From Minisyncoccota bacterium (GTDB lineage: Bacteria > Patescibacteriota > Minisyncoccia > UBA6257): a DNA stretch of 38,049 nucleotides. This document shows, in pieces, positions 5,063 to 37,452 of this stretch. Within the stretch, counting starts at the first letter, position 1; each line of letters opens with the position of its first letter. The notes under the pieces were generated by a model. It ran no database searches and was not told the origin of the DNA. It saw only the letters and a list, made by a program, of their open reading frames with translations. The stretch spans positions 1 to 38,049 of the forward strand of contig DAOSBJ010000001.1 in assembly GCA_035360795.1 (NCBI GenBank), written 5' to 3'. The translations under genes were made by a program, and so were the position numbers.

Positions 5063-7045
5063 TTATGCGGTATCAGTGTCTATAGGAGAAAGGAATTGAC
5101 TCATATAGAGATTGTAATAAAAACCACGGGCCGCTAAAAGTTGTTTATGGTTTCCTTGTTCTACAATCCGACCTTTATTCATCACTAAAATAATATCAGC
5201 ATTATAAATAGTGGATAGGCGATGGGCTATAACTAAACTAGTGCGACCTTTTCTTAGTTTAGCCATGGCTTTTTGAATCAATATCTCCGTCCGCGTATCC
5301 ACGGAACTGGTCGCTTCATCCAATATTAATATCTTTGGGTCAGCCAAAAAAGCGCGGGCTATGGTCAAAAGTTGTTTTTGCCCCTGCGAAATATTAGAAG
5401 CATCTTCCGTTAATATGGTGTCGTATCCTTGAGGTAACGTTCTAATAAAGTGGTCTATATAGGCTGCCTTAGCAGCGGCTATTATTTCTTTCTCTGTGGC
5501 TTCTTCCTTGCCATAGGCAATATTCTCTTTTATAGTGCCATTAAATAGCCAGGTATCTTGTAACACCATCCCGAAAATCTTACGCAGGTCATCTCTTTTC
5601 ATTTTCCGAATATCCACTCCATCTATAGAAATACACCCGCTGTCTATCTCATAAAAGCGCATCAATAAATTAACCAGCGTGGTTTTACCGGCGCCAGTGG
5701 GCCCTACGAGAGCCACTGTCTGCCCGGGTTCAACTTTTAAATTCATATCCTCAATTAGAGGAATATCACTACTATAACTGAAATATACATGTTCAAACTT
5801 AATCTGCCCCTTTATTTTTTCTAAAACTATTGGATTTTCGACATCTGGTATTTCTTCTTTTTCATCCAAAAGTTCAAACACCCGTTCAGCCGAGGCGGCA
5901 GTAGATTGGAGGATATTTACAATACTGGCTACCTGAACTACGGGCTGGGTGAACTGTTTTGAATATTGAATAAAAGCCTGTACTCCACCAAGAGTAATAA
6001 GACCTTTTGTCACTCGTATTCCACCAACAATACATATTGCTACATAGTTCACATTGTTCAGAAAATTTACCGAGGGACGAATAAGACTGGAGATAAATTG
6101 TGCTTTAAAACTTGATTCATAAACTCGTTGGTTCTCTTTATCAAAAAGTTGTTTTACTTTATCTTGTTGGTTAAATGCTTCAATAATATTATGGCCGGTA
6201 AATGTCTCTTCTATCTGACCATTTAAAGTACCAGTGCTGTCCCATTGAGCAACAAAGTATTTTTGAGAACGACTAATAACTAATCTGGTAATGAGAAGAG
6301 ATAATGGAATAATCATTAGAGATATCCAACTGAGAAGCGAGCTTATAGAAAACATCATTACCAGAATTCCTACCACTAATGCAATTGCATGAACCAGTTG
6401 AGTAATACTCTGCTGGAGGGTATGAGAAATATTATCTACGTCATTGGTTACTCTGCTTAAAATATCACCGTGAGAATGGGTGTCATAGTATTTTAAAGGT
6501 AATTTAGCAAGTTTGTTATCCACTTGTCGTCGTAACCGGTAAACAGTATTTTGGGCTATCCCAGCCATTGTGTATTGCTGTAACCATTGAAAGAAAGCCC
6601 CTAAAAGGTACACTCCTAAAAGAGTAATCAGAATATACCCCAGCACTTTGAAATCTATTCCTTTACCAGGAATAACATCCATTGCCGTCATCATCTCAGC
6701 TAATTGGTTCTGCCCCTTTGCCTTTAATTCTGCTATGGCTTGCTCTTTAGTCATTCCCGCTGGTAATTGCTTGCTCATTACTCCTTCAAATAGTTTATTG
6801 GTAGCCTCACCAATTATTCTTGGTGCCAGAACAGTAAATACCACACTTAAAATGGTAAAAATCACCACTAAAATAAGGGGAATTGCCTGAGGTTTAAGAT
6901 AAATAATAAGACGTTTAAGAGTTCCCTTAAAGTCTTTGGCTTTTTCCACTGACCTCATCGCCGCTCGCGTCCCACCGCCAAATCCGCCATGTCGCCTTTG
7001 TGCTTGAACATTTGGTTTATTATTTTGATGATTATCATTACTCAT
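5063..7045 (-). CDS. ABC exporter, fused permease/ATPase subunit (type I exporter half-transporter)
   Basis: 660 aa. A six-TM domain is followed by Walker A GPTGAGKTT, Q-loop, signature ISQGQKQ, Walker B ILILDEATS and an H-loop (AHRLST). Confidence 0.9.
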   Translation of the reverse strand: MSNDNHQNNKPNVQAQRRHGGFGGGTRAAMRSVEKAKDFKGTLKRLIIYLKPQAIPLILVVIFTILSVVFTVLAPRIIGEATNKLFEGVMSKQLPAGMTKEQAIAELKAKGQNQLAEMMTAMDVIPGKGIDFKVLGYILITLLGVYLLGAFFQWLQQYTMAGIAQNTVYRLRRQVDNKLAKLPLKYYDTHSHGDILSRVTNDVDNISHTLQQSITQLVHAIALVVGILVMMFSISSLLSWISLMIIPLSLLITRLVISRSQKYFVAQWDSTGTLNGQIEETFTGHNIIEAFNQQDKVKQLFDKENQRVYESSFKAQFISSLIRPSVNFLNNVNYVAICIVGGIRVTKGLITLGGVQAFIQYSKQFTQPVVQVASIVNILQSTAASAERVFELLDEKEEIPDVENPIVLEKIKGQIKFEHVYFSYSSDIPLIEDMNLKVEPGQTVALVGPTGAGKTTLVNLLMRFYEIDSGCISIDGVDIRKMKRDDLRKIFGMVLQDTWLFNGTIKENIAYGKEEATEKEIIAAAKAAYIDHFIRTLPQGYDTILTEDASNISQGQKQLLTIARAFLADPKILILDEATSSVDTRTEILIQKAMAKLRKGRTSLVIAHRLSTIYNADIILVMNKGRIVEQGNHKQLLAARGFYYNLYMSQFLSPIDTDTA

Positions 7046-8792
7046 AGATTATTTTCTCATTAGAAAGTTGCGAATGCACTATGTCACGATATACTTCGCA
7101 AGTTTTCATTAATTGATTATGGTTACCAATGCCGGCGATAGTGCCATCATCATTTAGAGTAATAATCTGGTCGGCATTTAGAATAGTACCTACGCGCTGA
7201 GCCACAATAATTACGGTATTATGAACAGTTTCTTTTTTAAGTGCTTGTCTTAATTGACTATCAGTTTTGAAGTCAAGGGCAGAAAAACTATCATCAAATA
7301 AGTATATCTCCGGCTTTTTAACTATAGCCCGGGCAATTGCCAGCCGTTGTCGTTGCCCGCCTGAAAAATTAACTCCTCCTTGTTCTACAGGAGCATATAA
7401 TTTATCAGGTAGTGCCATAACAAAATTTTTAGCCTGGGCTACTTCTAAAGCATGCCAGAGTTCTTCTTCAGTCGCATCTTCTTTTCCAAATCGCAAATTA
7501 TCGGCTATTGTTCCGCTAAAAAGAAAAGCCTTTTGTGATACCAATCCTATTCTGTCTCTTAAATCTTGCAAAAGAATATTACGAATATCTATGCCATCTA
7601 TTTTTATACTCCCGCTAGTTACGTCATAAAAACGGGGGATTAAAGCTATTAAGGTGCTCTTACCACAGCCAGTACTTCCTATAATAGCAGTAGTTTTTCC
7701 TGGCATCGCCGTGAAAGAAAGATTTTTAAGAACCGGTTCTTCTGCATCAGGATATCTAAAATCCACCTTACAAAACTCTATCTTTCCCTTTACTTTGTAT
7801 TCTGCTTTGGGAAGTAAAACTATAGGTTTGGTCGGATCTTTAATAGATGGTTCAGTATTTAATACTTCTAGTAACCGTTCAGCCGAGGCTTCAGCTCGAG
7901 GCACCATAAGAAACATACTCATAGCCAAAGTAACTGCTATCATAATTTCCATAATGTAAGTTAAAAAAGCAGTCAGATTACCTATTGCCATTGCTCCACT
8001 TTCTATTCTGTGACCTCCAAACCAAATAATGGCAATGGTAGTCATATTCATAATAATAAGAAGAGAGGGTATAGCCAAAGCAATAATTCGATTTACTCTT
8101 AAGGTGGTAGCAGTAAGGTCACGATTTGCTTTATCAAAACGTTGAGCTTCATAATTATTTTTCACAAAGGCTCTTATAACCCTGACACCCATCAGTTTTT
8201 CCCGCATAATTTGGTTCACGCGATCTATTTTGCTCTGAATAGAACGAAATAGTGGTATAGCCCTTATTAAGATAAGCCATACTACCACCGCCATCAAAGG
8301 AGCAATAATAATGATAGAAGAAGACAGCACTACGTCCTGTCGCAAAGCCATTATAATCCCGCCCAAGCACATAATGGGCGCCATAACCATAAGATTTAAT
8401 CCTAGAAGAACCAGCATCTGAATTTGGTGTACATCATTGGTATTACGGGTGATAAGAGAAGGAACGCCAAATTTATCAAGGTCAGCCTGGGAAAAACTTT
8501 CTACTTTATAAAATACAGCCTGCCTCATATCTCGTCCTACACTCATTGATATTCTAGAACCCAGATAAGAAGATGAAATGGCACAAGCTACTAATATTAG
8601 AGTAACTGCCAGCATAAAAGCGCCCGCTCTTATAATATAATTGATATCTCCCTTGGCCATCCCATTGTTAATAATATTAGCGTTGAGATTGGGCAAATAA
8701 AGACTGGCCATTACTTGAGCCAATAATAAAACTTCAGCCAAAACGACCTGTTTTCTATAAGGTTTTAAAAATTTTATTATTAAATCTTTCAT
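7038..8792 (-). CDS. ABC exporter, fused permease/ATPase subunit (partner half-transporter)
   Basis: 584 aa. TM domain, then Walker A GSTGCGKST, signature FSGGQRQR, Walker B IYLFDDSFS and an H-loop position reading AQRVGT. It overlaps the downstream partner by 8 nt, consistent with a heterodimer. Confidence 0.9.
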   Translation of the reverse strand: MKDLIIKFLKPYRKQVVLAEVLLLAQVMASLYLPNLNANIINNGMAKGDINYIIRAGAFMLAVTLILVACAISSSYLGSRISMSVGRDMRQAVFYKVESFSQADLDKFGVPSLITRNTNDVHQIQMLVLLGLNLMVMAPIMCLGGIIMALRQDVVLSSSIIIIAPLMAVVVWLILIRAIPLFRSIQSKIDRVNQIMREKLMGVRVIRAFVKNNYEAQRFDKANRDLTATTLRVNRIIALAIPSLLIIMNMTTIAIIWFGGHRIESGAMAIGNLTAFLTYIMEIMIAVTLAMSMFLMVPRAEASAERLLEVLNTEPSIKDPTKPIVLLPKAEYKVKGKIEFCKVDFRYPDAEEPVLKNLSFTAMPGKTTAIIGSTGCGKSTLIALIPRFYDVTSGSIKIDGIDIRNILLQDLRDRIGLVSQKAFLFSGTIADNLRFGKEDATEEELWHALEVAQAKNFVMALPDKLYAPVEQGGVNFSGGQRQRLAIARAIVKKPEIYLFDDSFSALDFKTDSQLRQALKKETVHNTVIIVAQRVGTILNADQIITLNDDGTIAGIGNHNQLMKTCEVYRDIVHSQLSNEKIIYE

Positions 8793-9008
8793 TTAAAATT
8801 ACCCCTATTTCTATTTTAATATCACAATTTCAATATTATACACTTAATTAAATGCTTTTCAAACAATGAAATATGATTTACCTTAAATTTTTCTTTTATA
8901 AAATTTAATTTGTTTTTTTGAATATCTTTTTTGCTTTATTTTGTTTAAAGGTATATTATAAGAAGTGAAAAAATAGAAGTGAAAAATAAATATTAAAAAT
9001 ATAAATCA

Positions 9009-9935
9009 ATGAAAAAAAATTTTATTTGGATTTTACTGGCAATAATTATTCTTTGCGGAATAAGTATTTGGTTAAGCTATAATAAAAGTCAGGTGAATTT
9101 GGTTCCATCCAATCAGCCTCCTCCAGGGGAAAATCTTATTGCTCAAGTGACTTTTCTTTGTAAAGATAATAAAACAATCGAAGCCAGCTTTTATAAAGGA
9201 GAAGCAAAGCCGGTAGAACCCGGCGAGCCGCCAATTCCTCGGGGAAAAGTGAAGCTTGTTTTAAGTGATGGCCGGAGTTTTGAATTACCTCAAACTATTT
9301 CTGCCAGTGGCGCTCGCTATGCTAATAGTGATGAGTCGTTTGTTTTTTGGAATAAAGGCAATGGCGCTTTAGTTTTGGAAAATAATGAAGAAAAAAATTA
9401 TATCGGTTGTGTAATTTTGGCTAAAGATTCAGGAAATTTACTAAACACTTATTTAGATGCTGTGGTAGGTTTCACCATTCGTTATCCGATTGATTATAAA
9501 ATAGATACTTCGTATAAGTATCAGGCTTTAGGTCCTGGTAAAGAAATTGGCGGTGTAAAATTTATTATTCCAGAGAGTTTTGCTACAGGTACTAATTTAT
9601 CAAGTTTTGATACTGGAATCTCGGTTGAAATTATTCCTACGACCGAAAATTGCCAAGCCAGCCTTTTTCTGCCTGTTACTGATAGTACTGAAGTTGAAAA
9701 TCTTGTTGATAATAATATTGAATATTCTTTCGCAAAAATTACCGAAGGCGCTGCTGGCAATTATTATGAAGAACAAGTTTGGGCGCTTATAGAAACTAAT
9801 CCCTGCATTGCTCTCCGCTATCTAATCCACTCAACCAATATTAATAATTATCCCGAAAGGATGGTTAAAGAATTCGATCGTGCCAATCTCCTAAATACTT
9901 TTGATAAAATTCGTTCTTCTTTGGTTATTTTGTAA
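9009..9935 (+). CDS. Membrane-anchored MliC-domain (C-type lysozyme inhibitor family) protein with an unknown C-terminal domain
   Basis: 308 aa with an N-terminal TM. The MliC-like block is VTFLCKDNKTIEASF...LPQTISASGARYANSDESFVFWNKGNGALVL. I could not assign the roughly 170-aa C-terminal part. Confidence 0.65.
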   Translation: MKKNFIWILLAIIILCGISIWLSYNKSQVNLVPSNQPPPGENLIAQVTFLCKDNKTIEASFYKGEAKPVEPGEPPIPRGKVKLVLSDGRSFELPQTISASGARYANSDESFVFWNKGNGALVLENNEEKNYIGCVILAKDSGNLLNTYLDAVVGFTIRYPIDYKIDTSYKYQALGPGKEIGGVKFIIPESFATGTNLSSFDTGISVEIIPTTENCQASLFLPVTDSTEVENLVDNNIEYSFAKITEGAAGNYYEEQVWALIETNPCIALRYLIHSTNINNYPERMVKEFDRANLLNTFDKIRSSLVIL

Positions 9936-25168: not shown

Positions 25169-25193
25169 AAATCAAAGAAATTTGTATAATTAT

Positions 25194-25787
25194 ATGAGAG
25201 TAAATAACAATTTTCCCAAAAAAGAAACCATCTCTGATGAACAAATCGCCACCAGCGTCCAGAAAGGAAATTTAGAAGATTTCGGTGAATTAGTGCTAAG
25301 ATACGGTAAGAAGATACAGAACTACCTTTTTAGATTTATTCAGACTAAAGAGGAAGTAGAAGACCTAACTCAAGATATTTTTTTAAAGGCCTATTCAAAT
25401 ATTTTAAGTTTTAATCCAAAGAAAAAATTCACTCCCTGGCTTTATCAAATAGCCCACAACGAGTTAGTCAATTATTTAAGAAAAAAACATTATCTTTCAA
25501 CAAAATTTATCAATTTAGATTTTGATGTTTTGGCCGCGAAAAGTATATCGGAAAATGACATTCTAAAAGATTTAGAAAACAACTTAAAATTCGAATTAAT
25601 AGACAAAAAACTAAATAAATTAAATTTTAAATATCGTCAGCCGTTTGTTTTATTTTTTTATGAGAATCTTTCTTATCAGGAAATCTCCGATATCTTAAAA
25701 ATACCTATTTCCACCGTTGGAACCAGAATCAAAAGGGCAAAAGAAATTATAAAAAAATCCGTTAATAATTCAGAATCTTTTAATTAA
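25194..25787 (+). CDS. ECF-type RNA polymerase sigma-70 family factor
   Basis: Region 2 (DLTQDIFLKAY, PWLYQIAHN) and a region 4 HTH (LSYQEISDILKIPISTVGTRIKRAK). ATG 25194 is preferred over the track TTG 25182. Confidence 0.85.
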   Translation: MRVNNNFPKKETISDEQIATSVQKGNLEDFGELVLRYGKKIQNYLFRFIQTKEEVEDLTQDIFLKAYSNILSFNPKKKFTPWLYQIAHNELVNYLRKKHYLSTKFINLDFDVLAAKSISENDILKDLENNLKFELIDKKLNKLNFKYRQPFVLFFYENLSYQEISDILKIPISTVGTRIKRAKEIIKKSVNNSESFN

Positions 25788-25791
25788 ATTT

Positions 25792-26538
25792 ATGGAAAAA
25801 GAGGAAACTAACAACACCCAAAAATTGAAAGAAAAAATTCTTACTCAAATTAAAAATGGGAAAGTAAAAATAAAATCTAAATTTTCTTTTATTTTAAAAA
25901 ACGTCCTTCTAATAGTAGGCATAATTGCTTTAATTCTTTTGGCATTGCTTATTTTAAGTTTTGTTTTCTTTAATTTAAAAGTTACAGGACTATTTTTTCT
26001 TTCCCATATAGGCCCACACGGTTTAAAAATGTTTCTGATAAATCTTCCCTGGCTATTAATTCTTATTGTCTTAGTGATTCTAATAATCTTGGAATTATTT
26101 GCCAAAAATTTAGCAGTGGTTTACCGAAGACCACTTCTTATTTCTTTTTTCGTCCTCTTCGGCTTAATTTTAATTGGCAGTCTAATCCTAAACAGAACAC
26201 CTCTTCATCCTTATTTTTTTTCTCAATCAAAAAAGCAGATGCCCCCGCCAGTTTATGGCTATTTTTACAGAAGAATCGGCCCCCCAAAACCTCCGTCCCG
26301 TTTTCAATCTTTTGTCTGGCGTGGTAATATAAAGGAACTTACAAACAAAGGCTTTATCCTGGAAACTTATTTTGGTGAAATATTAGAAATTCAAACCTCT
26401 ACATTGAGACAGAATCTTTCCGAACCTCTGAAAATAGGGGAGTCGGTAGCAGTAATTGGAAAAAAGAAAGGAACAATTATTGAAGCGGAGAAAATTTTAA
26501 AAACTGAAGATATTTTCAAAAAACCTCCCAGAAAATAA
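25792..26538 (+). CDS. Multi-pass membrane protein, putative cognate anti-sigma factor
   Basis: 248 aa. It starts 4 nt after the sigma gene. The N-terminus is short, cytoplasmic and basic, and several TM helices follow. There is no HxxxCxxC zinc motif. The assignment rests on position only. Confidence 0.4.
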   Translation: MEKEETNNTQKLKEKILTQIKNGKVKIKSKFSFILKNVLLIVGIIALILLALLILSFVFFNLKVTGLFFLSHIGPHGLKMFLINLPWLLILIVLVILIILELFAKNLAVVYRRPLLISFFVLFGLILIGSLILNRTPLHPYFFSQSKKQMPPPVYGYFYRRIGPPKPPSRFQSFVWRGNIKELTNKGFILETYFGEILEIQTSTLRQNLSEPLKIGESVAVIGKKKGTIIEAEKILKTEDIFKKPPRK

Positions 26539-29044: not shown

Positions 29045-30256
29045 ATGAAAGTCAATGATTTATTATCAGAATCAGTAAATGCTTTAAAAGCCAATAAACT
29101 TAGAACATTTTTAACTATTTTGGGAATAGTTATTGGTATTGCCTCGGTAATAGTAATGATTTCAATCGGCGAAGGAGTACAGAAAACAATTGAATCAGTT
29201 ATTGAAGGTCTAGGTTCAAATCTTTTAATTATTTATCCTGGCGCTTCTTCAAATCAAAGGGGGTCTGTTTCATTGGGAAGAGGCAGTATGACTTCTTTAA
29301 AAAATGAAGATATTGATTTAATAAGAAAAATCGATGGGGTAGCTTTCGTCGCGCCGGTTTTTCAAAGGCAATACCAAATTGTAAGCCAGACCGGTTATAA
29401 CACCCGAGCCTCAGTTGTTGGCACTACCAGTGATTATTATTCTGTTAGAAACTTAAAACTTAAAAGCGGCAGATTTTTAACTCCTACTGATGACAAAAGT
29501 TATAACAAAATAGCAATTATTGGCGCAAATATCAAAGAAGACCTTTTCCCTGATGATGACAATCTAATTGGAAAAAATATCAAAATAAATAGAGTAAATT
29601 TTAAAATAGTCGGAGTTTTAGAGTCAAAAGGAGGGGGATTTGGTTTGGAAGATGATTCAATTATTGTTCCTCTTTTAACAATCCAAAAAATGTTGGCCGG
29701 AGTTGATTATCTGGCAACTATCTCCGTCAGCGTTTCAAACCAAAACCAACTTTCACAAATCCAAGAAGAAATCACCAAAGTTCTCCTTCTTCAACATAAA
29801 GTTTCTGAACCTGATTTCTCTTTTATCTCTCAGCAAGATATTCTTTCTGCTTTAAATCAAATTACTACCACTTTCACAATCTTTCTCGCCTCTATTGCCG
29901 GAATTTCACTTCTCGTTGGCGGAGTGGGAATTATGAATATGATGCTTACCACTGTCACTGAGAGAACACGTGAGATTGGTTTAAGAAAAGCAGTTGGTGC
30001 CAAAAAAATTGAGATTACTCATCAATTTCTCTCGGAAGCCATTATTTTAACCAGTTTAGGAGGAATACTTGGAATTATTTCTGGTTGGTTAGGTTCAATT
30101 CTTTTTGCTAAAATAGTTAATGTTTATACTTCTATTTCTCCAGTCTCAGTTGTTTTAGCTCTTGGAATTTCTTTTCTGGTTGGTTTAGTTTTTGGTTATT
30201 ATCCTGCAAAAAAAGCCGCCAATTTAAATCCAATTGATGCCTTAAGATACGAATAA
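29045..30256 (+). CDS. MacB-type ABC permease (MacB periplasmic core + FtsX domain)
   Basis: 403 aa. NKLRTFLTILGIVIGIASV at the N-terminus, a large extracytoplasmic domain, and a C-terminal FtsX block (ERTREIGLRKAVGAK...YPAKKAANLNPIDALRYE). Confidence 0.9.
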   Translation: MKVNDLLSESVNALKANKLRTFLTILGIVIGIASVIVMISIGEGVQKTIESVIEGLGSNLLIIYPGASSNQRGSVSLGRGSMTSLKNEDIDLIRKIDGVAFVAPVFQRQYQIVSQTGYNTRASVVGTTSDYYSVRNLKLKSGRFLTPTDDKSYNKIAIIGANIKEDLFPDDDNLIGKNIKINRVNFKIVGVLESKGGGFGLEDDSIIVPLLTIQKMLAGVDYLATISVSVSNQNQLSQIQEEITKVLLLQHKVSEPDFSFISQQDILSALNQITTTFTIFLASIAGISLLVGGVGIMNMMLTTVTERTREIGLRKAVGAKKIEITHQFLSEAIILTSLGGILGIISGWLGSILFAKIVNVYTSISPVSVVLALGISFLVGLVFGYYPAKKAANLNPIDALRYE

Positions 30257-30286
30257 TTATTATTCACAAGTTATCCACAGTCGCAC

Positions 30287-30314
30287 TTGATTTATTTTTA
30301 AAATAATTTAAAAT
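30287..30314 (+). promoter_or_regulatory. Promoter-like hexamers (TTGATT-16-TAAAAT) just upstream of the hairpin array
   Basis: The predicted start is near 30320, which coincides with the first nucleotide of hairpin 1. Such hexamers can arise by chance in AT-rich spacer DNA. Confidence 0.3.
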
Positions 30315-30318
30315 GAAA

Positions 30319-30529
30319 GTGCTGTTGCTTAGAAGCCGAAAGGCAACTAAGCAATAGCACGCTGCCTTTTAGAAGCCGCAAGGCAACTAGAAGGTAGCAC
30401 GGTGATCCTTAGAAACCGCAAGGCGACTAAGAATCACCACGGTGATCCTTAGAAACCGCAAGGCGACTAAGAATCACCACGCTGCTCCTTTGAAGTCGCA
30501 AGGCAGAGAAGGAGCAGCATTTTTTATTT
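30319..30529 (+). ncRNA. Candidate structured RNA or 3'-UTR element: five tandem 40-nt hairpin modules ending in a terminator-like hairpin plus T-run
   Basis: Units lie at 30319-30360, 30361-30400, 30401-30440, 30441-30480 (identical to unit 3) and 30481-30518. Each has a 10-14-bp basal stem, an AA/AA-type internal loop, a 3-bp helix (gcc/ggc) and a GNRA tetraloop (gaaa or gcaa). Basal stems differ between units but stay complementary. Unit 5 is followed by tttttt. Confidence 0.55.
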
Positions 30530-30537
30530 CTTTAAAT

Positions 30538-30603
30538 AGTCATTCTGAGCGTAGCGAAGAATCTCTCGTATATTGTCATTCTGAGCACAGCGAAGAATCT
30601 CTC
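30538..30603 (+). repeat. Direct repeat of a ~29-nt element (gtcattctgagc-NN-agcgaagaatctctcg), two copies
   Basis: Copies at 30538-30567 and 30575-30604 differ at 2 positions. A 6-bp hairpin, tctcgc-gaat-gcgaga, follows the second copy. The element translates as HSERSEESL, which explains the spurious track ORF 30442..30693. Confidence 0.7.
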
Positions 30604-30661
30604 GCGAATGCGAGATTTCCAATCCAATGCGCGACATCTGATATCGTACCTAGTGTTATTT

Positions 30662-30690
30662 TTGACCTTTCAATTGCTACTTGCTACAAT
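30662..30690 (+). promoter_or_regulatory. Sigma70-type promoter (TTGACC-17-TGcTACAAT) for the DUF1858-pcm operon
   Basis: -35 ttgacc at 30662-30667, a 17-nt spacer, and an extended -10 tgc-tacaat ending at 30690. Confidence 0.55.
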
Positions 30691-30717
30691 TGATAATAAA
30701 CTCTCCAAGTTTTTATT

Positions 30718-30933
30718 ATGAAAAAAACCGCTAAAATCACAGGCAATACTTTGCTTTCAGAAATTGTAGACAACAAGAAATTCTTAAAAATTTTAACTAA
30801 ATATCAAGTACCTTGTTTAACTTGTCCTTTTGCTATTTTTGAAATTCAAAATTTAACTCTAAAGGAAGTCTGCGAAACTTATAATCTTGACCTTAAAAAA
30901 CTTCTCAAAGAATTAAATAAATCTAATAAATAA
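30718..30933 (+). CDS. DUF1858-domain small protein (hybrid-cluster-protein-associated redox disulfide domain family)
   Basis: 71 aa. TLLSEIV...KILTKYQVPCLTCPFA...TLKEVCETYNLDLKKLLKELN matches the DUF1858 pattern (C-x2-C, then an 'l.eac..hgid...ll.eLN' tail). Confidence 0.65.
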   Translation: MKKTAKITGNTLLSEIVDNKKFLKILTKYQVPCLTCPFAIFEIQNLTLKEVCETYNLDLKKLLKELNKSNK

Positions 30934-34085: not shown

Positions 34086-34140
34086 TACCCGCCCAAATAT
34101 TTGCAAAGTAAAAATTTGGGTGAGGCAAGCAAACAATAAT

Positions 34141-37100
34141 ATGAACAAAAAATTTATTGCAATTTTAGTAAGCGTTTTCGCGGTTGTGGGGATAGTAATA
34201 ATAGCCGGAAGAGCGAGAGCAGATACGCTTAATCCAAAAACTATTAATGTGGGGCCTCTTAATGGTTCTATCAATGGTTCTATCTCCGGTACTTTAACTG
34301 TTGGGAATAATGATACTGCCTCCACAAGTTCTTTAATTGGTACTTTTCCAGCTGTTGTCACTGGAATTAGTGATGGTACTTACAGTATTAGTGGTGATCA
34401 TCTAAGATTTACACCAGATAAATCAGGGCTTCCTCCCTATACTTCTGAGCAAGCATTTAATGGCACTATTACTCTTGATAAGGGAGTAGTTACTCTTCAA
34501 GGCACCCTTAATCCAGGGTTCAAGACAGATTCTGATGGAGATACTCATGACGTTACTAGTGTTAATGCTTCATTTTCTAATGGGATGGGTACTATTAAAA
34601 TTACTACTACCATTAATTATGGAACAGCTGAAAATCCTGTCGTCGTTAATTGGACTGTAGAAGGAGAAGTGGAAGCAGATTCTCTTAATGGTTCTATCAC
34701 TTCCGGTACTTTAACTGTTGGGAATAATGATACTGCCTTCACAAGTTCTTTAATTGGTACTTTTCCAGCTGTTGTCACTGGAATTAGTGATGGTACTTAC
34801 AGTATTAGTGGTGATCATCTAAGATTTACACCAGATAAATCAGGGCTTCCTCCCTATACTTCTGAGCAAGCATTTAATGGCACTATTACTCTTGATAAGG
34901 GAGTAGTTACTCTTCAAGGCACCCTTAATCCAGGGTTCAAGACAGATTCTGATGGAGATACTCATGACGTTACTAGTGTTAATGCTTCATTTTCTAATGG
35001 GATGGGTACTATTAAAATTACTACTACCATTAATTATGGAACAGCTGAAAATCCTGTCGTCGTTAATTGGACTGTAGAAGGAGAAGTGAATACTAATTCT
35101 ATTCAAGCTGCTATTAATGCCGCTTCTTCTGGCGACACCATCAATGTGGCAGCAGGAAATTATAAAGAACAATTGGTTATTGATAAATCTTTAACTCTGC
35201 AAGGAACAGGAGCTGGAACAACAATTATTGAAGCTCCTGACACGATGGCAGCAACTACTTGGACGCACCGTCGCACTGCATTCCAAACACTAATTGAAGT
35301 GAATGGAACATCTGCCCATGGTATTACTGTAAATATCAGCGGCTTTACCATTGACGGCCTCAACAAGTCCAGTGCAGATCCTCGATATACGGGCATCGTC
35401 TACCATAATGCTAATGGAACTATCTCAAATAATACTATCACGAAATTTGGCAACAATCCTCCAAAAGGTGCAGACGGATGGGGAATTTTTGTAGTAGAAG
35501 GCTCCAACGTTACTATCAGTAACAATACGGTTGATAAATGGGGCAAAGGTGGAATTGTCGTGGATGGGGATAATGATTATACAAGTACCGATGTTACAGC
35601 GACTATTACTGGTAACATAATAACTGGCGCAGGAGAGATAACTGCTGTTGCTCAAAATGGTATCCAAATTAGCCGAGGAGCAACGGGTACTGTGAGTAAA
35701 AATACTGTGAATGGCAATTATTATGATGGTTCAGATTGGAGTGGAAGCGGCATACTCCTTTATTACTCAAAAAATGTTTTAGTTTCCGAAAATACTCTTA
35801 CGGGTAATCAAACCGGGATTTACATTAACGGGGATAGTACTACTTATCCTCCTGATACTTATACTACGGATGGTTCACAGATTATAGATAATGATATTAA
35901 GGACGGAAAATATGGCATTGCCATTCTTCATACTAAGGACACTACCATAACTGGTAATACCATTAGCGGAAATACTGCTTCTGGCTTTCGTCTCCGAGCC
36001 GATGAAACTAATACTATTATTCGAGGTAACAATATTACCAGGAATAATACTTCTGACGCAGCTACTGCTGGGGGTATTTTGATTGAAAAAGATGCTAATG
36101 CTGATCAAATCACCGCCAACTTCAATAATATTGTGGGCAATAAGCAATACGGCATCTTCAACGGCAGCACAACTGACACTGTTAATGCCACCAACAACTG
36201 GTGGGGAGATAAGAGTGGACCCGGAGGTGTTGGCTCGGGTCTCGGGGATGCCGTTTCAGACAATGTTAACTATGACCCATGGATCGGGGCTGAGATAGAA
36301 AATAGTAAAACAGATTCAGTAACCGATGGCACTCTTGACGCTAAAACAGAAGCTAATACTGAAATTGTAGTAACAGGAGGAACTGCTACCGTAACTGCAG
36401 CTAAATATTCAGGTAATCCTGGAACTGGTTTTACTGGTGATATTGGTAAATACATTGATGTCTATGTCTCTCCAGACAGTACTGCTGCTGGAATAGAAAT
36501 TCGGCTTTATTATGCTGATAGTGAAATTTCTGGTAAAGACGAATCAAGTTTGAAATTGTATTGGTGGAACGATACAGCTTGGTCGCCTTGTTCTGATTCG
36601 GGAGTAGATACTGCTAGCAATTACATCTGGGCAAAAATTAGAAGTGATACTACGCCTAATTTAACTCAATTAACTGGCACTGCTTTTGGCGGAAGCGGCA
36701 GTCCATTGGTTACCACTGGTGGAGGTGGGGGTGGGGGTGTTATTGATATTACTCCTCCTGTTATCAGTGATATTAAAGTTGAAGCCCATAGCGATAAAGC
36801 AATTGTGAGTTGGACTACTGATGAATCAGCTATTTCTTGGGTAGCTTATGGAACTATTCCTAATTATGGTAATGAATTTCAGGATAATAATTACGTTACT
36901 TCACATACAGTCACTTTAAGTTTTTTGTCTCCACAAACCACTTATTATTATCAGGTAAAAGCTAGAGATAGAGCTGGTAATGTTTCTTCTAGCAGTGGTG
37001 CCACCTTTACTACTTTAAGTCCGGGTGAAGTTCTTGGTGCTTCAACCGAAGCAATGACATTAGAAGACTTAATGGCTAAAGTGAATGAAATTAAAGCTCA

Positions 37101-37452
37101 AATACAGAAACTTCAGAACAAATTAGCTCAACTTACCGGTAAGGTAGTTTTGGGTGCCGCTACTTATGAAGGAATTCCCCAAGATTTCAGTTTTAAAACT
37201 AATCTGAAAGAAGGGGATTCCTCAAACGATGTTAAGTATCTTCAGATAATTTTGAAAGCTGAAATCGGCGCTCCGACTTATCCAGAGAATGTGCCGGCTA
37301 CTGGCTGGTTTGGTCCCATTACTAAAGCCGCAGTTATTAAATTCCAAGAGAAATATGCTTCAGAGATATTGGCTCCTTGGAATCTCACTAAAGGCACTGG
37401 CTTAGTTGCTAATACCACCAGAGCCAAACTTAACCAAATGTTAGGCCACTAA
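34141..37452 (+). CDS. Giant cell-surface protein: TM/signal anchor, 2x139-aa duplicated domain, right-handed parallel beta-helix (PbH1/NosD-like), Fn3-like domain, coiled coil, and a C-terminal PG_binding_1 domain
   Basis: ATG 34141 (MNKKFIAILVSVFAVVGIVIIAG); the track GTG is at 34120. Beta-helix entry motif IQAAINAASSGDTINVAAGNY, many N-x-I/V-x-x-N turns, NNWWGDKSGPGG, an Fn3-like ITPPVISDI...YYYQVKARDRAGN, and PG-binding DVKYLQIIL...GWFGPITKAAVIKFQ. Confidence 0.85.
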   Translation: MNKKFIAILVSVFAVVGIVIIAGRARADTLNPKTINVGPLNGSINGSISGTLTVGNNDTASTSSLIGTFPAVVTGISDGTYSISGDHLRFTPDKSGLPPYTSEQAFNGTITLDKGVVTLQGTLNPGFKTDSDGDTHDVTSVNASFSNGMGTIKITTTINYGTAENPVVVNWTVEGEVEADSLNGSITSGTLTVGNNDTAFTSSLIGTFPAVVTGISDGTYSISGDHLRFTPDKSGLPPYTSEQAFNGTITLDKGVVTLQGTLNPGFKTDSDGDTHDVTSVNASFSNGMGTIKITTTINYGTAENPVVVNWTVEGEVNTNSIQAAINAASSGDTINVAAGNYKEQLVIDKSLTLQGTGAGTTIIEAPDTMAATTWTHRRTAFQTLIEVNGTSAHGITVNISGFTIDGLNKSSADPRYTGIVYHNANGTISNNTITKFGNNPPKGADGWGIFVVEGSNVTISNNTVDKWGKGGIVVDGDNDYTSTDVTATITGNIITGAGEITAVAQNGIQISRGATGTVSKNTVNGNYYDGSDWSGSGILLYYSKNVLVSENTLTGNQTGIYINGDSTTYPPDTYTTDGSQIIDNDIKDGKYGIAILHTKDTTITGNTISGNTASGFRLRADETNTIIRGNNITRNNTSDAATAGGILIEKDANADQITANFNNIVGNKQYGIFNGSTTDTVNATNNWWGDKSGPGGVGSGLGDAVSDNVNYDPWIGAEIENSKTDSVTDGTLDAKTEANTEIVVTGGTATVTAAKYSGNPGTGFTGDIGKYIDVYVSPDSTAAGIEIRLYYADSEISGKDESSLKLYWWNDTAWSPCSDSGVDTASNYIWAKIRSDTTPNLTQLTGTAFGGSGSPLVTTGGGGGGGVIDITPPVISDIKVEAHSDKAIVSWTTDESAISWVAYGTIPNYGNEFQDNNYVTSHTVTLSFLSPQTTYYYQVKARDRAGNVSSSSGATFTTLSPGEVLGASTEAMTLEDLMAKVNEIKAQIQKLQNKLAQLTGKVVLGAATYEGIPQDFSFKTNLKEGDSSNDVKYLQIILKAEIGAPTYPENVPATGWFGPITKAAVIKFQEKYASEILAPWNLTKGTGLVANTTRAKLNQMLGH
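34288..35089 (+). repeat. In-frame tandem duplication, period 417 bp, ~385 bp of near-identity (1 mismatch)
   Basis: By direct comparison, 34288-34672 matches 34705-35089. The only difference I found is C34322 versus T34739, which changes Ser to Phe. Confidence 0.9.

Follow-up and report, generated by a model that had tools for sequence, protein, structure and literature searches.

What would keep a row of five stable hairpins between two operons of a genome-reduced bacterium? The question is raised by a contig of a Minisyncoccota bacterium (GenBank assembly GCA_035360795.1, contig DAOSBJ010000001.1), of which we analysed positions 1 to 38,049; we refer to this whole stretch as the window. 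A first-pass annotation, made from the sequence without database searches, had noticed five tandem hairpin modules in a gap of about 460 nt downstream of a MacB-type permease gene, and had offered two explanations: a multi-hairpin small RNA (sRNA) of about 210 nt with its own promoter and terminator, or a stabiliser of the efflux operon resembling repetitive extragenic palindromes (REP) and bacterial interspersed mosaic elements (BIME). The gap measures 461 nt, and the array in it is a real, conserved, single-locus structured element. The comparative data, in which the whole block is conserved in six lineages, favour the sRNA. On balance we think it probable that positions 30260 to 30525 form an autonomous gene, encoded on the + strand and probably regulated by DnaA. 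Its product would be a small non-coding RNA, double-stranded almost throughout, with repeated apical modules that would bind a protein. The predicted RNA is about 205 nt long in the window and about 130-250 nt in its relatives.

The array itself occupies positions 30321-30518 of the + strand, where 38-nt hairpins follow one another head to tail with a period of 40 nt. Tandem Repeats Finder reports it as the sole array of that period (30328-30505, 4.4 copies, 82% matches), a covariance model places all five units on the + strand, and the + strand RNA of positions 30310-30520 folds into exactly five independent hairpins at -107.9 kcal/mol, compared with -52.5 +/- 4.1 kcal/mol for shuffled controls (z = -13.6). 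This minimum-energy structure makes up 0.45 of the ensemble. Each unit consists of a 12-bp basal stem (14 bp in unit 1), an A-rich internal loop of 2x2 or 3x3 nucleotides, an apical stem of 2-3 bp and a GAAA or GCAA loop; the GNRA-capped plan that had been read from the letters matches the + strand fold. Linkers of 2 nt join neighbouring units, and there are no spacers between them. The GC content is about 50% for the array, 47-58% for its units in the window and 47-61% for the units of all loci, compared with about 33% for the window, and the apex pattern AARCCGNAAGGCRA, searched with 0 mismatches, is confined to the array within the 38 kb.

The five units fall into classes that recur in the relatives, all on the + strand. 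Hairpin 1 (class I, 30319-30360; model match 30321-30358, 60.1 bits) has the 14-bp stem, an AA/AA internal loop and a GCC-GAAA-GGC apex, and its orthologues have compensatory changes at 4 stem positions. Hairpin 2 (class II, 30361-30398) has a 12-bp stem that includes two G.U pairs, and a GCAA loop. Hairpin 3 (class III, or GGTG type, 30401-30438) also ends in a GCAA loop, and its 12-pair basal stem holds a conserved C7.A32 mismatch; hairpin 4 (30441-30478) is identical to it in sequence, as first noted. Hairpin 5 (terminator class, 30481-30525; model unit 30481-30518) has 10 perfect pairs plus a U.G pair and a GCAA loop, and is followed by an A and by six Ts at 30520-30525.

We scanned 185,579 species genomes for TAGAARCCGNAAGGCRACTA and the JGI metagenomes for the same motif with the C at position 15 relaxed to Y (TAGAARCCGNAAGGYRACTA), and reached further loci by walking from homologues of the DUF1858 gene downstream of the array to their contigs. 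Arrays are present in six lineages of Paceibacterota/Minisyncoccia, with three, four, five or six units each. Lineage A includes the window and two independent assemblies with five units (L001 and L002), as well as two other assemblies with four (L011 and L019), in which hairpin 4 is missing. Six units were found in lineages B (L016, L142 and L033) and E (L029-L032), four (L006) or five (L036-L038) in lineage C, four in lineage D (L008 and L034), and three in lineage F (L039). The DUF1858 neighbour in lineages B-F is 63-88% identical to that of the window. Unit number shifts in steps of 40 nt: the block of classes II and III is duplicated in lineages B and E, class II is missing in lineage F, and the first and last units are retained in every array. 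This variation between strains and lineages is a point that the first-pass annotation did not contain.

A count of apex-motif loci, as the first-pass annotation had proposed, gave one array per genome in the scan of species genomes, with the source genome itself covered by the 38-kb window only. In 225 kb of related DNA the unit covariance model R1 matches the arrays alone. Because the motif is found at only one locus per genome, the array is not a REP element or a miniature inverted-repeat transposable element (MITE). We rejected the lone-match loci of the genome and metagenome scans (L005, L007, L009, L012, L014, L015, L017, L018 and L020-L024) as unrelated single hairpins or coding sequence. 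DUF1858 loci at 69% identity or less have no array and a different synteny, so the known range is one clade of Paceibacteria. Among phage records, BLAST gave as its sole match a 32-nt AT-rich chance alignment, and the apex motif has one single, unrelated match in viral contigs. No known RNA family had been recognised in the first reading, and this holds against Rfam 15: at the gathering threshold, its sole match in the window is a tRNA-Asn at 1126-1197, which is also the only match from ARAGORN. A permissive search of 30200-30750 gave best E-values of 0.29-7.8, far under gathering scores, and a search of six relatives gave no matches. Patescibacteria, the candidate phyla radiation (CPR), have tiny genomes with little non-coding DNA; a GC-rich non-coding block of 200 nt that is kept across lineages therefore argues for a real function.

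If the structure of the RNA is what is selected, the two sides of each stem should change together. We recovered 32 distinct units and computed covariation on the 29 that are 38 nt long and share the hairpin of 12+3 pairs. In these, 93.8% of cells are paired, compared with 80.3% in shuffles (0 of 500 reach it) and 23-53% with a slid partner. Double-sided changes occur in 9 of the 15 pairs, and the covariation score is 0.444 versus 0.173. For four of the five measures, none of the 500 shuffles reached the observed value; for the number of pairs with double changes, 25 did. An alignment restricted to orthologues, built from four natural four-unit arrays, gives the same four hairpins; of its 58 pairs, 8 carry double changes. 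Base pairs are kept by compensatory substitution, beyond both the shuffled and the slid controls, and the claim that the basal stems covary stands.

The apical part of the unit behaves differently. Positions U9, U10, G12, A13, A14, C16, C17, G18, G22, G23 and A29 are near-invariant, and GNRA loops cap 28 of the 32 distinct units. The loops are GCAA in 19 units and GAAA in 8, and GUAA, UUCG, UUUU, AAAA and UGAAAA also occur. Unit 1 of L039 has UUCG in place of GAAA, a classic exchange between two classes of extra-stable RNA tetraloop. The C7.A32 mismatch, at 30407/30432 in unit 3 and 30447/30472 in unit 4 of the window, persists in GGTG-type units throughout the six lineages, next to pairs that covary; the exception is an extra GGTG-type copy in L036, which pairs perfectly.

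The sequence in front of the array is conserved with it. In all six lineages the same frame leads into the first unit: TTATYCACA-NN-TTATCCAC(A/C), N7, TTGAYT, N16-18, TAWAAT, N5-6 and the first G of hairpin 1. The intervening stretches vary while the geometry stays. In the window, the promoter is a sigma-70-type TTGATT-16-TAAAAT at 30287-30314 of the + strand, as the first-pass annotation had proposed; a promoter scan found it as well, and the predicted start (about 30319-30321) falls at the foot of hairpin 1. Seven bp upstream of its -35 ends a double DnaA box, TTATTCACA-ag-TTATCCACA, at 30260-30279 of the + strand (9-mers at 30260-30268 and 30271-30279, 2 bp apart), which the first reading had not mentioned. 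Both 9-mers match TTATNCACA exactly, and no second tandem pair of this kind occurs in the window. The two are likewise exact in five of the six lineages; in L008, and in box 2 of L034, the match extends over 8 of 9 positions. In vivo binding of DnaA in Escherichia coli is almost entirely confined to double DnaA boxes with a spacing of 2-3 bp (PMC11317965), and the boxes of the window are of this kind, two tandem 9-mers near TTATCCACA at that spacing (here 2 bp). The double box probably ties the activity of the promoter to the replication initiator. The same double DnaA box and -35 geometry (TTATCCACAggTTATCCACAgaaattgTTGACT) also occurs in the viral contig IMGVR_UViG_3300045996_001982 (L049:2902-2934), where the boxes precede an apparent coding sequence; this contig is unrelated and higher in GC, and has no hairpin array.

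At the other end, a T-run stands 3' of the last unit in all complete arrays. A predicted promoter and a putative intrinsic terminator of its own are conserved with the candidate RNA in six lineages and in three flanking contexts. In all lineages the array keeps its place, with the macAB side before it and the DUF1858 side after it, and the flanks themselves have been rearranged several times. In L006 the block is intact though the upstream gene is not macB. L039 has lost the genes for sigma, a possible anti-sigma, HlyD, ABC and MacB, with a macB 3' remnant of about 60 nt left directly after uvrC (L039:2129-2300), and the array is retained. In L142, of lineage B, inserted genes for a glycosyltransferase family 2 (GT2) protein and GH113 (6704-9897, 3.4 kb) separate the array from the DUF1858 operon, again with an intact block. 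In the L025-L028 lineage the array lies right after macB, 3.8 kb upstream of DUF1858, and the gap before DUF1858 is 103 nt.

The array is likely transcribed on the + strand, since the promoter, the T-run and the GNRA/UUCG loops all lie on it. Several observations weigh against this and against the reading as a protein-binding RNA. The - strand folds nearly as well (-105.1 kcal/mol), and the comparison is mixed across relatives. The first-pass annotation had taken G.U wobbles as evidence for the + strand; with relatives included there are 13 G.U and 7 A.C sites (p = 0.13), which favours neither strand significantly, and the argument is not decisive. Read on the - strand, the C7.A32 mismatch of GGTG-type units would become a G.U pair. 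Perfect palindromes fit selection at the level of DNA equally well and would give the same covariation signal, and because the distribution is limited to one Paceibacteria clade, the covariation rests on few independent lineages together with paralogous units. The tetraloop has changed to UUUU, AAAA or UGAAAA in three units, so the loop itself is not the recognition element. Finally, the description of the last unit as terminator-like stood in part: it has the perfect 10-bp stem, the six Ts and the conserved T-run, and a simple terminator scan gave no call on it because the internal loop interrupts the stem. We therefore assign the terminator from a reading of the sequence and from the conserved T-run.

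From these features we infer transcription, its strand, and the binding of DnaA and of a protein, in the following way. The sigma-70-type promoter would start the RNA at the foot of hairpin 1, and the double box abutting it would couple transcription to the state of the replication initiator. The RNA would be a chain of 3-6 independent 38-nt hairpins joined by 2-nt linkers, with transcription ended by the last hairpin and its U-run. The sequence of the basal helix would be free to drift provided that pairing persists, with the apical module UAG-AA-RCC-tetraloop-GGC-RA-CUA held nearly constant. With nearly all nucleotides in pairs, and with the apical module as the part that stays constant, antisense action on mRNAs is unlikely. 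The apical modules would instead be recognised by a protein that the RNA binds multivalently, making the RNA a sponge or an assembly scaffold whose valency would be tuned by gain and loss of 40-nt units.

Two other explanations assign the array to one of its neighbours. It could close the macAB efflux mRNA at its 3' end, stabilising and terminating it in the manner of REP/BIME elements but from a single locus; the "promoter" would then be fortuitous AT-rich sequence. The array does begin 60 nt after the macB stop codon in lineages A, B, D and E and in the L036 strains of lineage C; since no other terminator intervenes, transcripts reading through from macAB must end in it, and stacked hairpins of such stability would block 3'-to-5' exonucleases. 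We nevertheless regard this explanation as unlikely. Array, boxes and promoter are kept in L006 with no macB upstream, and the array has survived the loss of the whole macAB operon in L039; the geometry of -35, -10 and boxes is conserved over variable spacers; the apical sequence is conserved far more than blocking an exonuclease needs; and there is a single locus with no dispersed family. The REP/BIME option of the first reading falls on the same grounds. A role at the macAB 3' end could still be compatible with the sRNA, which would then be a 3'-untranslated-region (3'-UTR) sRNA with its own promoter. Seen from the other side, the array could be a 5' leader or attenuator of the operon of DUF1858, PCMT, RRM, YchF and acylphosphatase genes, with read-through permitted by a factor such as the RRM protein of the operon. 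It is always upstream of that operon and in the same orientation, the start codon is only about 20-30 nt past the T-run in lineages D, E and F, and the RNA-binding RRM protein is a conserved operon member. Against this, the array of L142 is intact with two unrelated genes in between, unit number varies freely, the hairpins are mutually independent with no alternative antiterminator pairing visible in the fold, and the operon has a predicted promoter of its own, TTGACC-17-TACAAT in the window (30662-30690) and TGGAAA-17-TATAAT at L008:4402-4430 (-) and L039:2462-2490 (+), the latter nested in the terminator. A leader is in our view quite unlikely. Because the block survives changed flanks and the operon has its own promoter, both a pure macB 3'-UTR element and a pure DUF1858 leader are disfavoured.

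Two further explanations change the nature of the element. The palindromes, which fold equally well on both strands with no significant wobble asymmetry, might act as DNA beside a DnaA site, in DnaA titration or replication control, as a cruciform or as single-stranded DNA hairpins, and the double DnaA box is the most conserved flanking feature. That we consider very unlikely: there is a single double box, with neither dnaA nor dnaN within the 38 kb (by a Pfam scan of window open reading frames (ORFs) of at least 90 aa plus DUF1858, acylphosphatase and one array-overlapping ORF) and no turn of GC skew at 30 kb; the strand with the promoter and the T-run is specifically the one on which the loops are GNRA/UUCG; hairpin 1 stands at a fixed 5-6 nt from the -10; and cruciforms need no conserved A-rich internal loops. 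A replication origin at the array was rejected for the single double box, the lack of dnaA and of a GC-skew turn, and co-directional genes on both sides. It is highly improbable that the array is of the guide-RNA or antitoxin type (TIGR-Tas-like, CRISPR-like or ToxI-like type III) and processed into unit RNAs. Conserved and variable segments make up its tandem units of about 40 nt, which lie behind a promoter and end in a terminator, a layout like that of ToxI and, as described below, of TIGR arrays. The same 38 kb hold no gene for a Nop/Tas, Cas, reverse transcriptase, ToxN-type or transposase protein; the variable segments are mutually complementary and evolve between lineages by slow compensatory change, not as unrelated spacers; and the gene after the array encodes a widespread DUF1858 protein that is also found where there is no array. 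The element is most probably an sRNA gene that is new and clade-specific, unusual in its modular build and preceded by a DnaA-box promoter.

Comparison with known systems helps to place such a gene. The array is most like the repeated-hairpin sponges of the Csr/Rsm type. Like CsrB, RsmY and RsmZ, it would be a stand-alone sRNA gene with a predicted promoter and intrinsic terminator of its own, in which a variable number of stem-loops present one short motif repeatedly and leave little sequence for antisense pairing. Unlike them, it has no GGA in its loops (the sole GGA lies inside the terminator stem) and carries GNRA loops with a conserved A-rich internal loop and flanking pairs; its modules of 38 nt are near-identical and keep a strict 40-nt period, and it has no Rfam match. 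With REP/BIME and BOX elements it shares stable GC-rich tandem palindromes right after a stop codon in an AT-rich genome, which could protect the upstream mRNA. It differs in having one locus per genome instead of tens to hundreds, in the lack of any RAYT (REP-associated tyrosine transposase) or transposase domain among the scanned window ORFs, and in the conserved promoter and double DnaA box in front of orthologous units with compensatory changes. sRNAs of the DapZ/MicL type arise from 3'-UTRs, with a promoter where the upstream coding sequence ends or just past it, and a terminator shared with the upstream mRNA. The promoter of the array likewise lies just past the end of macB, and its terminator would be common to any macAB read-through, whereas the RNA would be fully structured, has no evident seed region and is kept when the upstream gene is lost.

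ToxI-type arrays consist of a promoter, tandem repeats of about 36-40 nt and a terminator, followed by a protein gene, and in lineages D, E and F a protein gene does follow the array immediately. A type III antitoxin was rejected because genes for DUF1858 and PCMT, and none for a ToxN, CptN or TenpN endoribonuclease, come next downstream, and because GT2 and GH113 follow the array in L142, where it persists with DUF1858 3.4 kb away; its units are also simple hairpins. A CRISPR array was rejected as well, since the units abut by 2-nt linkers with no spacers and the window has no cas genes. Arrays of tandem interspaced guide RNAs (TIGR arrays) have 36-nt units in which conserved and variable segments alternate, with a rho-independent terminator at the end (Faure et al. 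2025, PMC12045711). The units here are similarly short (40 nt) and also end in a putative terminator. What defines TIGR-Tas systems is a neighbouring Nop-domain protein, Tas, and units that each hold two independent spacers, flanked by edge and loop repeats with boxes D (UG) and C (CCA); they are reported from phages and parasitic bacteria, with Patescibacteria mentioned once (PMC12045711). We rejected this assignment since there is no Nop-domain gene nearby, the variable segments are paired with each other (93.8% of cells) and conserved between lineages, and the UG...CCA box order is absent. The array was also rejected as coding sequence: an 83-aa ORF at 30442-30693 has no family match, and indels of a 40-nt unit would shift its frame.

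The array is set among genes of several functions. Upstream, all on the + strand, are uvrB, uvrA, uvrC, an extracytoplasmic function (ECF)-type sigma factor, a 248-aa protein, an HlyD-type adaptor, an ABC ATPase and the MacB-type permease, which ends at 30256. The ECF-type sigma gene and the 248-aa ORF (25182-26538), which has no Pfam match and possibly encodes an anti-sigma factor, lie directly upstream of HlyD-ABC-MacB, and all five genes are lost together in L039. The downstream operon encodes DUF1858 (71 aa, 30718), PCMT, an RRM protein (97 aa), YchF and acylphosphatase. The TGGAAA-17-TATAAT form of its promoter, found in the same sequence in L034 and L006, has its -35 inside the 3' half of the terminator hairpin and the terminator T-run as its spacer; the start codon comes 7-14 nt after the -10, so the DUF1858 mRNA may be nearly leaderless.

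Some repeats near the locus deserve separate mention. Between the array and the DUF1858 promoter of the window are two direct copies of GTCATTCTGAGC[GA][TC]AGCGAAGAATCTC (30539-30565 and 30575-30601). The GTCATTCTGAGC/AGCGAAGAATCTC core 25-mer occurs in 92 stretches of viral contigs whose GC content ranges from 32% to 69%, with no conserved flanks and often with an inverted partner 30-60 nt away; given this number, range and lack of conserved flanks, it looks like a very widespread, tiny dispersed element. It is present in 1-3 copies in lineages A and B and in none in lineages C-F. In lineage E, L030 (2323-2490) and L032 have a 161-nt insertion between the terminator and DUF1858 that the sister strains L029 and L031 do not have; it has repetitive, inverted ends (ctaaactctaaactctaaac ... 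gtttagtatttagtgtttag), as in a MITE. Farther downstream in the window, a 417-bp tandem repeat (34266-35088, 2.0 copies) lies inside a 1110-aa ORF (34120-37452) for a large surface protein with beta-helix/NosD, fn3 and peptidoglycan-binding domains. Its copies are 98% identical, which indicates a recent internal duplication.

To our knowledge, almost nothing is known on regulatory RNA in Patescibacteria. We suggest, tentatively and with considerable doubt, that the array represents a new class of DnaA-gated, replication-coupled riboregulators in these genome-reduced bacteria, in which a protein that binds hairpins, such as an RNase, a ribosome-associated factor or the RRM protein, would be titrated or assembled by 3-6 identical apical modules, and rapid gain and loss of units would set the dosage; alternatively, the hairpins might be cut into unit RNAs for some effector. 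If the sRNA gene is what it appears to be, it would be among the first clade-specific sRNAs defined in Patescibacteria. It would offer a natural case of valency tuning through module duplication, with three to six units and variation between strains, and a non-coding candidate target for DnaA in its role as a transcription factor, through which replication status would be passed to an RNA effector. The conserved apical module could serve as bait for the protein that binds it.

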